Positions 40,261 to 64,000 of a stretch of 64,000 nucleotides of DNA are shown piece by piece (position 1 is the first letter of the stretch; the number at the start of each line of letters is the position of its first letter). Both the position numbers and the translations under genes were made by a program. The notes below the pieces were generated by a model, which had not been told where the DNA came from, made no database searches, and saw nothing but the letters and a program-made list of their open reading frames with translations. Origin of the DNA: an uncultured Fimbriimonadaceae bacterium (GTDB lineage Bacteria > Armatimonadota > UBA10988); assembly GCA_964405335.1 (NCBI GenBank), contig CAYONP010000005.1, positions 9,202 to 73,201 on the forward strand, given 5' to 3'.

Positions 40261-41538
40261 GTGATGGCAAACGAGCCGACCCTGTCGCGGCGGCAGGTGA
40301 TCACATCGATGGTCGGCGCGGCGATGGCGCCGATGGTGCTGACCAGCGCCAAGGGCCGCGCGGCGCCGGGTGATCGTATCACCATGGGCTGCATCGGCAT
40401 CGGCAACATGGGCAGCGGCAACACGGGCGCCTTTCTGGGCCGCGGGCAGGTGCAGGTGGTGGCCGTCTGCGATGTCCGCAAGTGGGTCCGCGACGACTGG
40501 CAGCAGCGGGTCAACCAGCGCTATGCCGAGGCCGCCGGGCGCGGTGAGTATGCCGGCTGCACGGCCTATGCCGATTTCCGCGAGCTGCTCGCGCGCGACG
40601 ACATCGACGCGGTGATGATCGCCACGCCCGACCACTGGCACGCGCTGGTCGCCATCGAAGCGGCCAAGGCGGGCAAGGACATCTACTGCGAAAAGCCGAT
40701 GACCCTGACCGTCCGCGAGGCCCGCGCGCTGGTCGACGCGGTGCGGCGCTACGGGCGGGTCTTCCAGACCGGCAGCCAGCAGCGCTCGTCGCCCGAGTTT
40801 CACCGCGCCTGCGAACTGGTGCGTAACGGTCGGATCGGCAAGGTCGAGCAGGTCAACGTCAATGTCGGCGGGCCGTCGCTGCCGAGGAGCTATGTCGAGG
40901 AACCGATTCCCGAGGGCTTCGACTGGGACATGTGGCTCGGCCCGGCGCCTTATGCGCCGCACAACGGCGAGCGCTGCAGCGGCGACTACGGCGGCGGCTG
41001 GCGCCAGGTGCGCGACTACTCGGGCGGCATGATGACCGACTGGGGCGCGCACCACTTCGATATCTGCCAGTGGGGCCTGGGCATGGACGGCTCGGGCCCG
41101 GTCGAGGTCCACCCGCCCGACGGCAAGGACTACGACAAGCTCACTTACATCTATGCGAACGGCGTCCGGGCGGTCCACCAGGGTGGCGGCAACGGCGTGC
41201 TGTTCATCGGCACCGAGGGCACCGTCGAGGTCAATCGCGGCCACCTGGCGACCAACCCGCCCGAGCTGATGCACGAGGTCATCGGCCCGAGCGAGACCCG
41301 GCTCTACCAGAGCCGCGACCACCACGGCGACTTCCTCGGCTGCATCCGCACCCGGCAGCGGCCGATCTGCGATGTCGCCGTCGGGGCGAGCAGTGTGACC
41401 ATGTGCCACCTGGGCAACATCGCCTGGTGGACCGGCCGCTCGTTCCGCTGGGACCCGCAGACCGAGCAGATCGTGGATGATGGCGAGGCGGCGCGCTGGC
41501 TCGATCGGCCGCGGCGCGACCCGTGGCGCCTGGCGTAG
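40261..41538 (+). CDS. Gfo/Idh/MocA family oxidoreductase, Tat-exported
   Basis: LSRRQVITSMVGAAMAP Tat signal. ITMGCIGIGNMG Rossmann. DIDAVMIATPDHWHA…EKPM core, paralogous to 45789..47027. Confidence 0.8.
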   Translation: MMANEPTLSRRQVITSMVGAAMAPMVLTSAKGRAAPGDRITMGCIGIGNMGSGNTGAFLGRGQVQVVAVCDVRKWVRDDWQQRVNQRYAEAAGRGEYAGCTAYADFRELLARDDIDAVMIATPDHWHALVAIEAAKAGKDIYCEKPMTLTVREARALVDAVRRYGRVFQTGSQQRSSPEFHRACELVRNGRIGKVEQVNVNVGGPSLPRSYVEEPIPEGFDWDMWLGPAPYAPHNGERCSGDYGGGWRQVRDYSGGMMTDWGAHHFDICQWGLGMDGSGPVEVHPPDGKDYDKLTYIYANGVRAVHQGGGNGVLFIGTEGTVEVNRGHLATNPPELMHEVIGPSETRLYQSRDHHGDFLGCIRTRQRPICDVAVGASSVTMCHLGNIAWWTGRSFRWDPQTEQIVDDGEAARWLDRPRRDPWRLA

Positions 41539-43954: not shown

Positions 43955-44818
43955 ATGAAGCGACGTGAGATGCTCATGAACCTGGGTGCAGCGATGGTCG
44001 GACTCTCGGCGGGGCTCGCGGCGAGGGCCGCGGGGCCGCGCCGGCGGATCCTCTTCTACACCAAGTCGGCGGGCTTTCAGCACTCGGTGATCACCCGCCA
44101 GAACGGCGAGCTGGGCCACGCCGAGAAGGTCCTCATGCAGATGGGGAACGAGTACAACGTCGAAGTCGTGTGCAGCAAGGATGGCGGGCTGTTCACCGCC
44201 GACTCGCTCAAGACCTTCGACGCGCTCGCCTTCTACACCACCGGCGACCTGACCCAGACCGGCACCGACGGCCAGCCGGGGTTGCCCGACGGCGGCAAGC
44301 AACTGCTGCTCGACACGGTGGCCGCGGGCAAGCCGGTGGTCGGCTTCCACTGCGCCACCGACACGTTCCACAGCCAGGGCGACCAGGTCGATCCGTTCAT
44401 CACCCTGATCGGCGGCGAGTTCGCCGGACACGGCGCGCAGCAGGAGGCGACCCAGCGAGTGGTCGACCACTCGCTGCCCGGCCTCGACGAACTCGGCGCC
44501 AGCTTCCGGCTGCACGAGGAGTGGTACGCCTTCCGCAACATCAACCCCGACATCCGCGTGCTGCTGGTCAACGAGACCGAAGGCATGACCGGCGGCGACT
44601 ATGAGGGTAAGCCGCCGTTCCCCTCGACCTGGGTGCGGATGCACGGCGAAGGGCGCGTCGCCTACACCAGCATGGGCCACCGCGAGGATGTCTGGACCAA
44701 CCCGATCTTTCAGGGCGTCACGGTCGGCCTGTTCGCCTTCGCCTTCGGCGAGGCCGACCTCGACCTGACGCCGAACCTGAAGCGAGTCTGCCCGGACTTC
44801 ACGGCGGTGGCGGGGTAG
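43955..44818 (+). CDS. ThuA-family (trehalose-utilisation / glutamine amidotransferase-like) protein, Tat signal
   Basis: RREMLMNLGAAMVGLSAGLAARA, then ILFYTKSAGFQHSVI…VVGFHCATDTF…YTSMGHRE typical of ThuA. It starts 1 nt after the HEAT gene stop. Confidence 0.75.
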   Translation: MKRREMLMNLGAAMVGLSAGLAARAAGPRRRILFYTKSAGFQHSVITRQNGELGHAEKVLMQMGNEYNVEVVCSKDGGLFTADSLKTFDALAFYTTGDLTQTGTDGQPGLPDGGKQLLLDTVAAGKPVVGFHCATDTFHSQGDQVDPFITLIGGEFAGHGAQQEATQRVVDHSLPGLDELGASFRLHEEWYAFRNINPDIRVLLVNETEGMTGGDYEGKPPFPSTWVRMHGEGRVAYTSMGHREDVWTNPIFQGVTVGLFAFAFGEADLDLTPNLKRVCPDFTAVAG

Positions 44819-44819
44819 C

Positions 44820-45127
44820 GCCGGGTAGGGCCGCCTCGCCGAGGCGGCCGCCATCGACCGCCGGTAGCGCCCGAACGGACCGCCGGCGTCCCCGCCGGCA
44901 TTGGCCCGTTCGGCGAACGGGCCCTACCCGAGCCCGAACAGACCGCCGGCGTCCCCGCCCCGTTGAGCAGCCCTGGTAGGGGCAGCCCTTGTGGCTGCCC
45001 GCGGTTCGATAAACCCGCTCCAGCAGCGGGCGACCACAAGGGTCGCCCCTACCGGATCGGCGTTCGGTGCCGTTCCATAGCACGTGCGACCCGCCGGCAG
45101 CGGCCCGTTCGGCGAACGGGCCCTACC
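44820..45127. repeat. cluster of REP-like palindromic intergenic repeats between convergent genes
   Basis: Two copies of GCCCGAAC(G/A)GACCGCCGGCGTCCCCGCC (about 44870 and 44932). Two identical copies of the self-palindrome GGCCCGTTCGGCGAACGGGCCCTACCC (about 44904 and 45103). Hairpin GGCCGCCTCG-C-CGAGGCGGCC (about 44829-44849). A 27-nt-arm imperfect inverted repeat GTAGGGGCAGCCCTTGTGGCTGCCCGC … GCGGGCGACCACAAGGGTCGCCCCTAC (about 44975-45052). Confidence 0.6.
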
Positions 45128-45436
45128 CTACGCCGGCAGCTCCGGCGCGGCGGTCGGTGCCGGCCTGGCTCGCGCCAGCAGCCCAAAGCCGACCACCAGG
45201 AGGAGGTACAGGCTGGCCGGCGGCACCGTCCAAATCAGGTACAGAGCGCTCATGTCGCCGTCGCGGATGCCGCCGGTCATTGATGCGATGACGATGCCGT
45301 AGCTGGGCACGGTCAGAATCAGCGGCAACGCCGCCGCCCAGCGCCAGCCGCGGCGCAACACCGCCAGGGCGATGACCTGCAGCAACGGGTAGCCGGCGAA
45401 GACGAGGAAGCTCACCAGGAACATGACGCCGCCCAT
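45128..45436 (-). CDS. small 3-TM membrane protein, unknown family (paralog B)
   Basis: Start at internal Met MGGVMFLVSFLVFAGYPLLQV with GGAG RBS. Paralogous to 45475..45792 (shared PLLQVxALxVLRRGWR…motif). The upstream part of the ORF is Arg-rich junk. Confidence 0.5.
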   Translation of the reverse strand: MGGVMFLVSFLVFAGYPLLQVIALAVLRRGWRWAAALPLILTVPSYGIVIASMTGGIRDGDMSALYLIWTVPPASLYLLLVVGFGLLARARPAPTAAPELPA

Positions 45437-45474
45437 CGAGCATCTCCGGCCGACGCCGATGCGCGGCGGTGCTG

Positions 45475-45792
45475 CTATTCTGTGGCGTCCGCCGGCGGCG
45501 CGTCCGCCCGCCGCGCCGCGATGAGGCCTCCGATCAGCACGATCAGCAGGTAGACCGCGCCGATCGGCCCGAACAACAGCGCCCAGATGCCGCCGAGATT
45601 GTCCATCGAGCGCGGCTTGCTCCAACTGGCCAGCAGCGCGGCATAGGCCAGCACGCCCGGCAGCAGCGGGATGAACGCCGCGGTGCGCCAACCGCCGCGG
45701 AGCACGAACAGGGTCACCGCCTGCAGCACCGGCCAGGCGCAGATCAGCACCGCGGCGAGGTAGACGATAGGCGACGTGTCCTGGTCGCTCAT
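45475..45792 (-). CDS. small 3-TM membrane protein, unknown family (paralog A)
   Basis: MSDQDTSPIVYLAAVLICAWPVLQAVTLFVLRGGWR… The ATG overlaps the TGA of the upstream Gfo/Idh/MocA gene (ATGA). Confidence 0.55.
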   Translation of the reverse strand: MSDQDTSPIVYLAAVLICAWPVLQAVTLFVLRGGWRTAAFIPLLPGVLAYAALLASWSKPRSMDNLGGIWALLFGPIGAVYLLIVLIGGLIAARRADAPPADATE

Positions 45793-47027
45793 GCCGGCAT
45801 GGTCCACGGTGCGCGGTAGTCGTAGCTCAGCATCGCGTTGGCCTCCGGGTCGTTGACGATCTGCTCGCTCTCCGCATTCCAGGTTATCTTGCGGCCCGTG
45901 CGGATCGCGAGGTTGCCGAGGTGGCAGACCGTCGCGCTGCGGTGGCCGATCTCCACATCGCAGATCGGCAGCTCGCGGCTGCGGATGCAGTCCATCCAGT
46001 TGCCCGTCTGGCTGCGCGAGCGGTAGAGCCGCACATCGCCCTCGCCGAGCGGCGTCTCGATGACCTCCGCCGGCTCCGAGGCGAGCTTGCCGCGGTTGAC
46101 CATGATCTTGCCGTCGCTGCCCTCGAAGGTCGTCCCGCCCGGCTGGCTGCTGCCGCACAGGACGGTCACGCCGTCGGGATACTCGTAGGTGCAGTCGAAC
46201 CGCCGCGGCACTTCGTACCAGCCGTCGGGGTGATACTCGGCGGTACCCTCGACCGCCAGCGGCCCGGCCGCATCCATGCCCAGTCCCCACTGGGCGATGT
46301 CGAGGTGGTGCGCGCCCCAGTTGGTCATCTGCCCGCCCGAGTAGGGCCAGAAGAAGCGGAAGTTGTAGTGTACCTGCTTGGCGTTGTAGGGCCGGTACGG
46401 CGCCGGGCCGAGCCACATGTCGTAGTTCAGCTCGGGCGGCGGATCGCCGTCGGGCACCGCCGGTCCCTCGAAGTTGACGCCGGGGATGCCGACGCGGACG
46501 GTGTGGACCCGGCCGATCCGCCCGCTGCGGACCAGCTCGCAGGCGGTGCGGAACTCGTTGGCCGAGCGCTGCTGGCTGCCGCACTGAAGGATCCGCCCGG
46601 TCGCGCGCGCGGCGGTGACCATCGCCCGGCCCTCGGCGACGGTGAGTGTCATCGGCTTCTCGCAGTAGACATCGAGCCCGGCGCGCATCGCCTCGATGCT
46701 CAGCTTGGCGTGCCAGTGGTCGGGCGTGGCGATGATCACCGCGTCGATCAGGCCCGACTCGAACAGCCGCCGATAGTCACCAAAGCCGGGCACCTCGCGC
46801 TCGGTCTTCTCGCGGACCAGCGTCTGCGCGGCGGCCAAGATGCTCGCATCGACGTCGCAGATGGCGGCGCAGTAGCGGGCCAGCCCATTGAGGTGCGACT
46901 TGCCCATGTTGCGCACGCCGATGAAGCCAAGGCGGAGGTCAACGTCGGCGGCCCATGCGCGGCGGGTGATGATGAACGGCAGCGCAACGGCGGCTTTGAG
47001 GATGTCGCGGCGGGACGCGGTTGGCAT
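45789..47027 (-). CDS. Gfo/Idh/MocA family oxidoreductase, Tat-exported
   Basis: SRRDILKAAVALPFIITRRAWA Tat signal. RLGFIGVRNMG Rossmann. DAVIIATPDHWHA…EKPM. GGGAG RBS. Confidence 0.8.
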   Translation of the reverse strand: MPTASRRDILKAAVALPFIITRRAWAADVDLRLGFIGVRNMGKSHLNGLARYCAAICDVDASILAAAQTLVREKTEREVPGFGDYRRLFESGLIDAVIIATPDHWHAKLSIEAMRAGLDVYCEKPMTLTVAEGRAMVTAARATGRILQCGSQQRSANEFRTACELVRSGRIGRVHTVRVGIPGVNFEGPAVPDGDPPPELNYDMWLGPAPYRPYNAKQVHYNFRFFWPYSGGQMTNWGAHHLDIAQWGLGMDAAGPLAVEGTAEYHPDGWYEVPRRFDCTYEYPDGVTVLCGSSQPGGTTFEGSDGKIMVNRGKLASEPAEVIETPLGEGDVRLYRSRSQTGNWMDCIRSRELPICDVEIGHRSATVCHLGNLAIRTGRKITWNAESEQIVNDPEANAMLSYDYRAPWTMPA

Positions 47028-47197
47028 GGGGCGGCTCCCGGTATGTGGTTCGCGGTGGCATGGCGGTGCCCTGCCTGGTTCCGCGGAGGTCGACCGTCTC
47101 GGTCGACGTGGCCTGGGACGGCTGTCCGGCGCCGACCGGGACGGTCGGCCTACGCAGCATCACGGGTCGGCCGACCCGGAAACCGCCACCCCTGTCC

Positions 47198-62641: not shown

Positions 62642-64000
62642 TCACTCCGCGAAGCCGATCAACTGCGGTCCCCGCTCCTTCGAGTAGCGGAACACGGCAT
62701 ACGGTTTCGGCTCGTCGACGGTGATGCTCGGCCCGACATGCCGGCGCAGCGAGGCGATCGGCCGGGCGGCGACCAGCGGATAACCCTCCCAACCCCACCA
62801 GGCGCCGCCGGCGGGCACCTGGTCGGGCGGCATCCAAAGCACGACGTGGGCGCCCGCCGGCAGGTCGGCGGCATCGAACAGGGCGAAGTCGCGCCGCAGC
62901 GTGTCACTCGCCACCTGCCAGTGCTGGGTCTCATCGAGCCGGTTGCGCTGCAAGCCGTAGACCTGCCAACAGAGCAGCACGATGGTCAGAATCACCGCCG
63001 GCCAGAGCAGGATCCGACGGTCGTTTGCCCGCCGCCAGAGGGTGACCAGCCCAAGCGCCACCAGGCCCATCGCCGGCGCGGTGGCCAGGTAGAGGTAACG
63101 CGACGGCAGGTGATCGGGGGTCAAGGAGGCCAGCGGCGCGTAGACGAGCGGCTGGAGCGCCACCCAGCCGGCCAGCACGCGCACCTCACCTCGGCCGCGC
63201 GCCGCCAGCCAGACGACCACCAGCGCGACGGCACCGGTGACCAGGGGCAGCAGCGACGGATCGAGCCGGCGCGTGACCCACACCGGGAACAGGTCGCTGG
63301 CGAACGACGCGGTGACCAGCCCAGTCCAGTTGCCGAGCAGGTGTGGGCCGAGGGCATACTCGGAGTAGTAGAGCCGCGGCCCGGCCAGGCGCCAGGCCAG
63401 GTAGCCGGCGAAGAGCAGCCCCGGACCGAGCCACCGGCGCCATGCGACACGATCGTCGAGCCACTCCATCCAAAGCAGCAGCAGCACCGGGGCGATCGAC
63501 TCCTTGATCAGGCAGCCGAGGATCCCCAGCGCCGTGAGCAGCCACAGCCGGCTCGGCGAGCCGGCGCTACCTGCGTCGCCCGCTCTATCGCGCAGCATCA
63601 GGATCGTCAGCGCGAGCGTCAGGCAGAACGATTCGTTGAGGTTCGAGATCCAGCAGACGCCGTTGCGCGGGCCGTAGGCGGTGGCGAAGAGCAGCGCCGC
63701 GAGCAAGCCGACCGTCGCATCGACGCGGCGGCTCAACCAGACCGCCAGCAACGCGGCGTTGAGCAGGTGGAGGCCAATCAGCAGCACGTAGTAAGCCGGC
63801 GCCTGATGGCCGAACAGGGCGGTCAGCACGGCCCAGAGCGCATTGCCAACCGGTCGCTTCCAGGCGCCGATGTAGAGCTCATCCAGCGGCCCGGGCGCCA
63901 GCACGAGCCCCGGCTCGGCGGCCAGGGTCTCACCGACCTGGAGGTAGGCGAAGTCGTCGCAGACGAAGTAGTTGTCGAGCAGCGGCAGGTAGACCCACAG
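62642..64000 (-). CDS. polytopic membrane protein, GT-C-like candidate (5' end beyond window)
   Basis: The frame stays open to the window edge (LWVYLPLLDNYFVCDDFAYLQV…). There is a DD-x2-Y motif near the N-terminus and many TM helices. Confidence 0.5.
   Translation of the reverse strand: MWVYLPLLDNYFVCDDFAYLQVGETLAAEPGLVLAPGPLDELYIGAWKRPVGNALWAVLTALFGHQAPAYYVLLIGLHLLNAALLAVWLSRRVDATVGLLAALLFATAYGPRNGVCWISNLNESFCLTLALTILMLRDRAGDAGSAGSPSRLWLLTALGILGCLIKESIAPVLLLLWMEWLDDRVAWRRWLGPGLLFAGYLAWRLAGPRLYYSEYALGPHLLGNWTGLVTASFASDLFPVWVTRRLDPSLLPLVTGAVALVVVWLAARGRGEVRVLAGWVALQPLVYAPLASLTPDHLPSRYLYLATAPAMGLVALGLVTLWRRANDRRILLWPAVILTIVLLCWQVYGLQRNRLDETQHWQVASDTLRRDFALFDAADLPAGAHVVLWMPPDQVPAGGAWWGWEGYPLVAARPIASLRRHVGPSITVDEPKPYAVFRYSKERGPQLIGFAE

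Follow-up and report, generated by a model that had tools for sequence, protein, structure and literature searches.

We analysed a 64-kb window (64,000 nt; below, "the window" always means this whole stretch, which has a GC content of 72%) of contig CAYONP010000005.1 from an uncultured Fimbriimonadaceae bacterium, and in particular the gap between two of its convergent genes. An earlier note, made by reading the letters of the sequence, had described this gap as a cluster of palindromic repeats resembling repetitive extragenic palindromes (REPs) or bacterial interspersed mosaic elements (BIMEs). The gap is 309 nt long (44819-45127) and lies between a gene of the ThuA family on the left and a gene for a small predicted membrane protein on the right. 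It is non-coding, as had been proposed: analysis of the GC content at third codon positions (GC3) detected no phase bias from 44835 to 45105. We consider it very probable that the gap is a BIME-like cluster of five REPs of the GTAG class, some of which form doublets similar to those called REPINs (REP doublets forming hairpins). The two flanking genes and the five units, named U1 to U5, are as follows.

43955-44818, plus strand: ThuA-family gene, 287 aa (Pfam PF06283, E = 2.8e-32; GC3 0.93)
44824-44849, plus strand: U1, type A, GGTAGGGCCGCCTCGCCGAGGCGGCC; GGTAG head followed by the hairpin GGCCGCCTCG-C-CGAGGCGGCC; folded as single-stranded DNA, -12.0 kcal/mol with the head unpaired
44903-44928, minus strand: U2, type A, GGTAGGGCCCGTTCGCCGAACGGGCC
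44975-45000, plus strand: U3, type B, GGTAGGGGCAGCCCTTGTGGCTGCCC
45028-45053, minus strand: U4, type B, GGTAGGGGCGACCCTTGTGGTCGCCC
45102-45127, minus strand: U5, type A, GGTAGGGCCCGTTCGCCGAACGGGCC, identical to U2
45128-45436, minus strand: gene for a 102-aa predicted membrane protein, convergent with the ThuA gene, identified by GC3 frame analysis and translation

Each of the five units is 26 nt long and consists of a 5-nt unpaired GGTAG head and a 21-nt GC-rich hairpin. When folded as single-stranded DNA, the units gave energies from -10.5 to -12 kcal/mol and stems of 8-10 bp, with GGTAG left unpaired. Two types could be distinguished: type A has a TCGCCGA centre (three units) and type B a CTTGT loop (two units). 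The sole differences between U1 and U2/U5 are compensatory changes at three stem pairs, and U3 and U4 differ by the compensatory change of AG/CT to GA/TC. All five hairpins carry an unpaired GGTAGGG head on one side; the GC hairpin, the palindromic motif and both arms of the inverted repeat pointed out in the earlier note are therefore units of one repeat class. The palindromic motif (GGCCCGTTCGGCGAACGGGCCCTACCC) does occur twice, at 44903 and 45102; the copies agree at all 27 nt, and over a 46-nt extension their identity is 89%. It is palindromic as claimed, but "near-perfect" does not describe it well, because the 10 bp of stem in its core pair perfectly around a 1-nt loop. The GC hairpin, also with a perfect 10-bp stem, was located at 44829-44849. 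The large inverted repeat is also present (44975-45009 with 45019-45053); its arms are 35 nt long with 80% complementarity.

The units follow one another in the orientations plus, minus, plus, minus, minus. U1 and U2 form an inverted pair with the heads outward and a spacer of 53 nt, U3 and U4 form a second such pair with a spacer of 27 nt, and U5 stands single. U3, its spacer and U4 (44975-45053) can fold together into a 79-nt REPIN-like long hairpin (-30.5 kcal/mol, z = -7.2). All five units are extragenic and lie between the two stop codons. The TAG stop codon of the ThuA gene (44816-44818) is itself situated within a GGTAG motif, and U1 begins 5 nt later; at the other side, the head of U5 directly adjoins the TAG stop codon of the right-hand gene (45130-45128), the minus strand reading CGTAG and then GGTAGGG across the junction. 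In dinucleotide-preserving shuffles of the sequence, the type-A pattern, with 4 matches in the window, was expected 0.04 times, and the type-B pattern, with 2 matches, 0.00 times. Folding of a 320-nt region, a check that the earlier note had called for, showed both strands to be strongly structured (z = -7.2 for each). As already stated in that note, the cluster is not an array of clustered regularly interspaced short palindromic repeats (CRISPR): the orientation is mixed, the units are heterogeneous in sequence and the gaps are irregular (27-53 nt).

To look for the units in other genomes, a genome collection was scanned with a degenerate type-A pattern, GGTAGGGCCNNNTCGNCGANNNGGCC, in which three inner stem positions per side are free. 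At least 105 stretches of genome DNA matched, with many loci per genome; among the matches listed, 12 loci each were found in one metagenome-assembled genome (MAG) of Pelagicoccus and one of Kiritimatiellae. The listed matches came mostly from Kiritimatiellae, Opitutales/Pelagicoccus, Lentisphaerae and other Verrucomicrobiota, and further ones from Acidobacteriota (Luteitalea, Vicinamibacterales), Limnocylindrales, Tepidisphaerales and Binatia. The motifs are thus dispersed in genomes of Verrucomicrobiota, Kiritimatiellia, Lentisphaerae, Acidobacteriota, Chloroflexota and Binatia, with some 26-mers identical; the 26-mer of U1 occurs unchanged at least 24 times among the matches listed. The circumstance that the earlier note named as refuting, motifs confined to one place in the genome, does not hold for these other genomes. 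The exact 26-mer of U2/U5, which has 77% GC, was found in the metagenome contig L112 (Ga0214474_1001750), beside several sibling variants. This contig has only 47% GC, indicating that the REP family ignores the base composition of its host. The same 26-mer is present as a single unit in contig L113 (71% GC), where its GTAG supplies the TAG stop codon of the upstream gene. Type B is dispersed as well: it was found in four IMG/VR contigs with the stem variants GG/CC, GA/TC (identical to U4) and AG/CT (identical to U3), the unit identical to U3 being in contig L117. For adjacent unit pairs in other genomes, 44 of 69 have the heads outward, with spacers of 5-55 nt, and the pairs in the window (53 and 27 nt) agree with this.

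Two side observations were made on these loci. In L112 (2900-7150 and 9500-9560) sibling GTAGGG hairpins stand in head-to-head pairs. Loci L013 and L095 (CAYYLJ01), which belong to a MAG labelled "uncultured Enterobacteriaceae", have 72% GC and bear the same REP family; this label is almost certainly wrong, the MAG being misbinned or mislabelled.

The hairpin itself is under selection in the units. The free inner triplets were perfectly complementary in 102 of the 126 scanned units, and 7 different triplet types were present. A less biased set was obtained by picking units by their head and loop only and excluding the matches to the scan pattern, which gave 30 distinct sequences; in these, each of the seven free positions pairs in 25-29 of the 30 sequences. 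When the three type-A sequences of the window were added (33 distinct sequences), 94.2% of the cells pair, compared with 75.6% in shuffles (0 of 500), and the covariation score was 0.448; shuffles gave 0.128, and no slid register exceeded 0.094. Five of the ten stem pairs are changed on both sides (57 cells). Little or no variation was seen in the GGTAG head, the first two stem pairs and the central TCG-N-CGA; since head and centre were fixed by the way in which the sequences were selected, their invariance is not independent evidence.

The type-A REPs are physically associated with a clade of REP-associated tyrosine transposases (RAYTs) in other genomes. HIH and YILQNPVRAGLV motifs are present in the product of an open reading frame (ORF) in locus L034, which comes from a Binatia MAG. 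This protein belongs to the NCBIfam family NF047646, the equivalog of the REP-associated tyrosine transposase (82.2 bits, cutoff 80), and matches E. coli TnpA-REP (PDB 4ER8) with E = 2.9e-7; with Pfam Y1_Tnp it scored 17.9 bits, under the cutoff of 23. Its identification as a RAYT is thus based on NCBIfam and the PDB sequence search, Pfam alone being insufficient. A total of 331 homologues were obtained at E <= 1e-10, several of which are named as REP-associated tyrosine transposase (in Pelagicoccus, Synoicihabitans and Ereboglobus). All five RAYT genes concerned (L034 and L118 to L121) have heads-outward pairs of GGTAGGG...TCGCCGA... REPs on both sides. L118 comes from the same Pelagicoccus MAG that gave 12 REP loci. 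For L118 and L119, the stop codon of the RAYT gene itself comes from the GTAG of a REP, and the doublet of L119 is a heterodimer of two REPs with different stems. In about 0.8 Mb of REP-bearing loci there was one RAYT gene, which fits the low RAYT copy number already known, 1.3-1.8 per replicon (PMC5581495).

Taken together, the GTAG-headed palindromes, their extragenic position and alternating orientation, their compensatory stems, the dispersal of the family elsewhere and its place beside RAYT genes bear out the REP/BIME-like nature that the earlier note had suggested.

To see how the site varies, we compared the window with related sequences. Exact copies of the ThuA protein of the window were found on short Logan contigs only. 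Its close relatives, with 99%, 71% and 69% identity, are likewise confined to short contigs; all others are at or below 57%, and the named ones among these are from planctomycetes. This distribution indicates that the source lineage is poorly sampled. In the relative with 99% identity (L122, a contig of SRR22452317, 2100-2161), the ThuA gene ends in ...GCGGTG ACG AGC TAA and is followed, in the roughly 35 nt visible, by non-REP sequence of lower GC. In the window the gene ends in ...GCGGTG GCG GGG TAG, which leads into U1. Two very close strains thus have different final two codons, different stop codons and different sequence downstream. The relative with 71% identity (L123) has just one REP, of type A and with the head GGTAGCG, between the ThuA gene and a different convergent gene, of the LmeA family, and the GTAG of this REP overlaps the stop codon of the LmeA-family gene.

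A total of 14 Logan contigs from 10 runs carry the exact ThuA protein or the exact membrane protein, and all of them end within the cluster or at its edge. The organism is represented in runs SRR14793169/71/72, SRR26372209-11, ERR3169467/8 and SRR34646253/7. The contig ends on the left side are at 44850, 44921 (twice), 45000 (twice) and about 45041, and those on the right side at 45130, 45107, 45099 (twice), 45091, 45071 and 45026. The contig assemblies of Logan were made with k = 31, as we assume. There is no k-mer of 28 nt or longer that is repeated within the window; the breaks therefore need further copies elsewhere, strain variation, or loss of coverage at the hairpins. The remaining right-side contig, which has the exact membrane protein and U5 (L126, from ERR3169468), diverges from the window 11 nt after U5, in the last 20 nt of the contig, where it has GCCGGCGG followed by TCGCCGTGG and the window has GCCGGCGG followed by GTCGCACGTG. 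Either the cluster is polymorphic between strains, or the contig joins here to a different copy of the REP.

Besides the five units, the cluster contains a second repeated motif, M2, in two copies.

44869-44896, plus strand: M2 copy a, GCCCGAACGGACCGCCGGCGTCCCCGCC, in the spacer between U1 and U2; part of a 7-bp hairpin (44882-44899) that ends just beyond the motif
44932-44959, plus strand: M2 copy b, 27 of 28 positions identical to copy a; folded alone, z = +0.37, not significant

M2 corresponds to the second motif of the earlier note, which was indeed found twice, starting at 44869 and 44932; its partial complementarity to the palindromic motif was likewise reproduced (11 nt at 91%). Two matches to M2 were observed in the window, compared with 0.00 expected in the dinucleotide-preserving shuffles. 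M2 is a local 28-nt duplication in direct orientation on both sides of U2; in front of U5 there is part of a further copy, from the end of the motif (CCCGCCGGCA). M2 may belong to the U2-type element, as its tail or spacer module. In addition, a 9-mer, GGTAGCGCC, is present at 44814-44822, where it holds the ThuA stop codon, and at 44863-44871, 49 nt apart, and so brackets U1. We considered it as a target-site duplication, but did not adopt this reading because Y1 transposases are, to our knowledge, not known to make duplications of this sort.

Several points weigh against our interpretation or narrow what it is built on. The evidence for dispersal comes from other genomes, the source genome being seen through the 64-kb window only. 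Just two metagenome contigs, and none of the genome matches listed, contained the exact U2/U5 26-mer. No RAYT was detected in the window by two regular-expression searches for HUH...Y..NP and a phmmer search of the six-frame ORFs with the L034 protein as query. M2 was found in none of the fetched loci except contigs of this same locus. Downstream of the ThuA stop codon of L122, no REP was seen in the visible stretch of about 35 nt, which is followed by poly-G, probably a sequencing artefact, and REPs may lie beyond it. The contig breaks could result from strain polymorphism or from loss of coverage at GC-rich hairpins. Finally, the effects of the cluster at the RNA level are something that we infer, and only by analogy.

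By analogy with known REP systems, the following mechanism may be proposed for a cluster of this kind. The units would be non-autonomous mobile DNA, each folding into a hairpin on single-stranded DNA. A RAYT (Y1/HUH) encoded elsewhere in the genome would recognise the hairpin together with the GTAG head, and would cut and rejoin the strand, thereby mobilising the units in trans. Units spread in this way could accumulate where the genome permits it, for example at gene 3' ends. After insertion, the hairpins would be transcribed into the 3' untranslated regions (UTRs) of both convergent genes, where, to judge from the REPs of E. coli and Pseudomonas, they would most likely block 3'-to-5' exonucleases, or pause or terminate read-through between the genes. 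Because U5 lies at 0 nt and U1 at 5 nt from a stop codon, they may also disturb the termination of translation; in E. coli, REPs at up to about 15 nt from the stop codon reportedly can stall terminating ribosomes, and both units are within this distance.

Among the other explanations, we first considered that the structure is a bidirectional terminator or a 3'-UTR stabiliser, evolved locally to serve the two convergent genes, rather than mobile DNA. It would suit such a function that the cluster is positioned exactly between two convergent stop codons, that both strands are very stably structured (z = -7.2) and that no other terminator-like site separates the two genes. However, a T-tract follows none of the hairpins in 44819-45127, the only such sites in the scanned range being at 45463 and 45597; identical 26-mers exist in unrelated genomes and flank RAYT genes; in the 99%-identical relative, the visible stretch of some 35 nt downstream of the ThuA stop codon has no REP; and five hairpins are far beyond what termination needs. 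A dedicated terminator, which had been offered in the earlier note as one possibility, is therefore unlikely. Most likely, judging by analogy, REPs would be secondarily used as terminators or stabilisers, and we regard this as part of the best explanation, the cluster of mobile REPs.

Another possibility is that the elements do not depend on a RAYT but come from a classical DDE transposon, in which case they would be miniature inverted-repeat transposable elements (MITEs) with terminal inverted repeats and target-site duplications. U3-U4 does resemble a 79-nt element with inverted ends, and the 9-mer GGTAGCGCC around U1 (44814 and 44863) can be read as a target-site duplication. Nevertheless, the inverted ends are GTAG-headed hairpins of the family that flanks RAYT genes, single units occur (U5 and that of L113), which is unexpected for a MITE, and there is no direct repeat around U3-U4. 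The stems covary, which means that the thing conserved is the hairpin rather than a terminal sequence. We thus consider MITEs very unlikely.

We also considered a structured small RNA (sRNA) gene with its own promoter in the gap, a reading that the earlier note had mentioned too. The fold is strong, and the 79-nt U3-U4 hairpin gave weak, sub-threshold matches to models of long-hairpin microRNAs (miRNAs). Against this, a scan of the cluster gave no promoter-like site, and the best scores with Rfam 15 were 19-31 bits, compared with gathering thresholds of 60-268, all of them for long-hairpin miRNA or small nucleolar RNA models. The sequence is also absent from the visible downstream part of the close relative, and the hairpins are accounted for, unit by unit, as REPs. 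It is hardly credible, then, that an sRNA gene is the primary identity of the cluster. Although short palindromes are abundant in high-GC DNA and the window has other GC hairpins (for example at 47080-47180), the notion that the palindromes arose by chance in a genome of 72% GC has practically no probability left, being already refuted by the shuffle controls (0.04, 0.00 and 0.00 matches expected compared with 4, 2 and 2 observed for type A, type B and M2), by the fold (z = -7.2) and by the identical units in other genomes.

A possible sixth unit was found elsewhere in the window.

63546-63571, minus strand: possible type-A unit, GGTAGCGCCGGCTCGCCGAGCCGGCT, with a GGTAGCG head, inside a membrane-protein gene and read through as ...DAGSAGSPSRLW...

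Its status is uncertain: it has 2 mismatches to the type-A pattern and is situated in a coding frame that is continuous across the unit. The GGTAGCG head is also found on the REP of the relative L123. One possibility is a REP inserted in frame within the gene, as has been reported for Opitutus terrae. Upstream of an oxidoreductase gene, at 47080-47180, there are three further GC-rich palindromes, GTCGACCGTCTCGGTCGAC, GCCGACCGGGACGGTCGGC followed by CTAC (a GTAG head on the minus strand) and GGGTCGGCCGACCC, which may represent another REP-like family.

As for the genes around the cluster, the boundaries of the right-hand gene had to be corrected. A mechanical ORF list gives an ORF at 45123-45443, which we rejected because its codon-position GC of 0.91/0.64/0.52 marks the wrong frame; the true gene occupies 45128-45436, so that its end is at 45128 instead of 45123. 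On 8 independent contigs, a protein identical to its product is called. The ORFs at 44799-45083 and 44963-45283, which run across the gap, are spurious and should be ignored. The right-hand gene is one of two tandem paralogous genes for membrane proteins of about 100 aa (45128-45436 and 45475 to about 45790, both on the minus strand), located downstream of a GFO/IDH/MocA oxidoreductase gene (45789-47027, minus strand). The two proteins have a common motif, ...LQ.(I/V).L.VLR.GWR.AA..PL..., and neither has a Pfam match. A paralogous GFO/IDH/MocA-type oxidoreductase gene is at about 40261-41538 on the plus strand, so that the two oxidoreductase genes enclose the HEAT-repeat and ThuA genes and the REP cluster; in loci L063, L081 and L013, the regions matched by the one are also matched by the other.

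The practical consequence of these results is that the gap should be annotated as a REP cluster, rather than as a candidate sRNA, a CRISPR or a regulatory element. The cluster would account for the breaks of short-read assemblies at this site, although this evidence is indirect and other causes are possible. If the interpretation is true, the REP hairpins should set the 3' ends and the stability of both convergent mRNAs, and expression of both genes may change, the REPs being 0 and 5 nt from the stop codons. A wider proposal is that the GGTAGGG-headed REPs and the RAYT clade make up a single superfamily in at least six phyla (Verrucomicrobiota, Kiritimatiellota, Lentisphaerota, Planctomycetota, Acidobacteriota, Chloroflexota and Binatota). 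We put this forward tentatively and with more doubt than confidence; identical 26-mers do span genomes of 47% to 72% GC. Were it true, REP-RAYT systems would either have spread between phyla, in contrast to the current picture of strictly vertical, lineage-specific REPINs, or have an extraordinarily conserved recognition code, and the window would hold, in this cluster, a hotspot of recent insertion activity, which has rewritten the last two or three codons of ThuA and its stop codon. The sharing of the family and the RAYT clade by bacteria of the Planctomycetes-Verrucomicrobia-Chlamydiae (PVC) group, Acidobacteriota, Chloroflexota and Binatia bears on how REP-RAYT systems are inherited.

Compared with the REPs and BIMEs of E. 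coli, the cluster is likewise a mosaic of alternating REPs at the 3' ends of genes, each with a GTAG-type head and a hairpin. The likeness described here is architectural only, and the units are probably unrelated in sequence to the Y and Z REP types of E. coli and to their linker motifs; the transposase of L034 is homologous to E. coli TnpA-REP (PDB 4ER8) but remote (E = 2.9e-7). REPIN-RAYT systems have been studied in detail in Proteobacteria, in Pseudomonas and Enterobacteria (Bertels & Rainey 2011, PMC3116915; Bertels et al. 2017, PMC5581495). With these, the family shares inverted REP doublets that have a short spacer and can form a long hairpin (here U3-U4), an extragenic position, and a RAYT gene that is typically single-copy and is bordered by the same REPs (for this family, in other genomes). 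It differs from them in that many doublets are heterodimers with different stems (U1/U2, and also that of L119), which, because the stems differ, give two small hairpins instead of a long one, and in that the REP family spans several phyla, whereas the described REPIN populations are lineage-specific.

The closest description is that of the GTAG REPs of PVC bacteria (Opitutus terrae GTAG-17 to GTAG-20, and Rhodopirellula baltica; Di Nocera et al. 2013, PMC3733652), for which dimers, clusters, GTAG-derived TAG stop codons, intragenic copies and REPtrons, in which REPs flank RAYT genes, are already known. Both have the same unpaired GTAG tag and a short GC-rich stem-loop, and both occur as single units, as tail-to-tail or head-to-head dimers and as clusters. 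In both, the REPs often supply the TAG stop codon, exist as several families per genome and flank RAYT genes. This comparison was made at the level of description. The head of the units reported here is longer (GGTAGGG), its last two Gs forming the first two stem pairs, and the host has 72% GC. We conclude that the locus is a real feature of a class already described, and that its mildly unusual part is the sharing across phyla seen in the scan.

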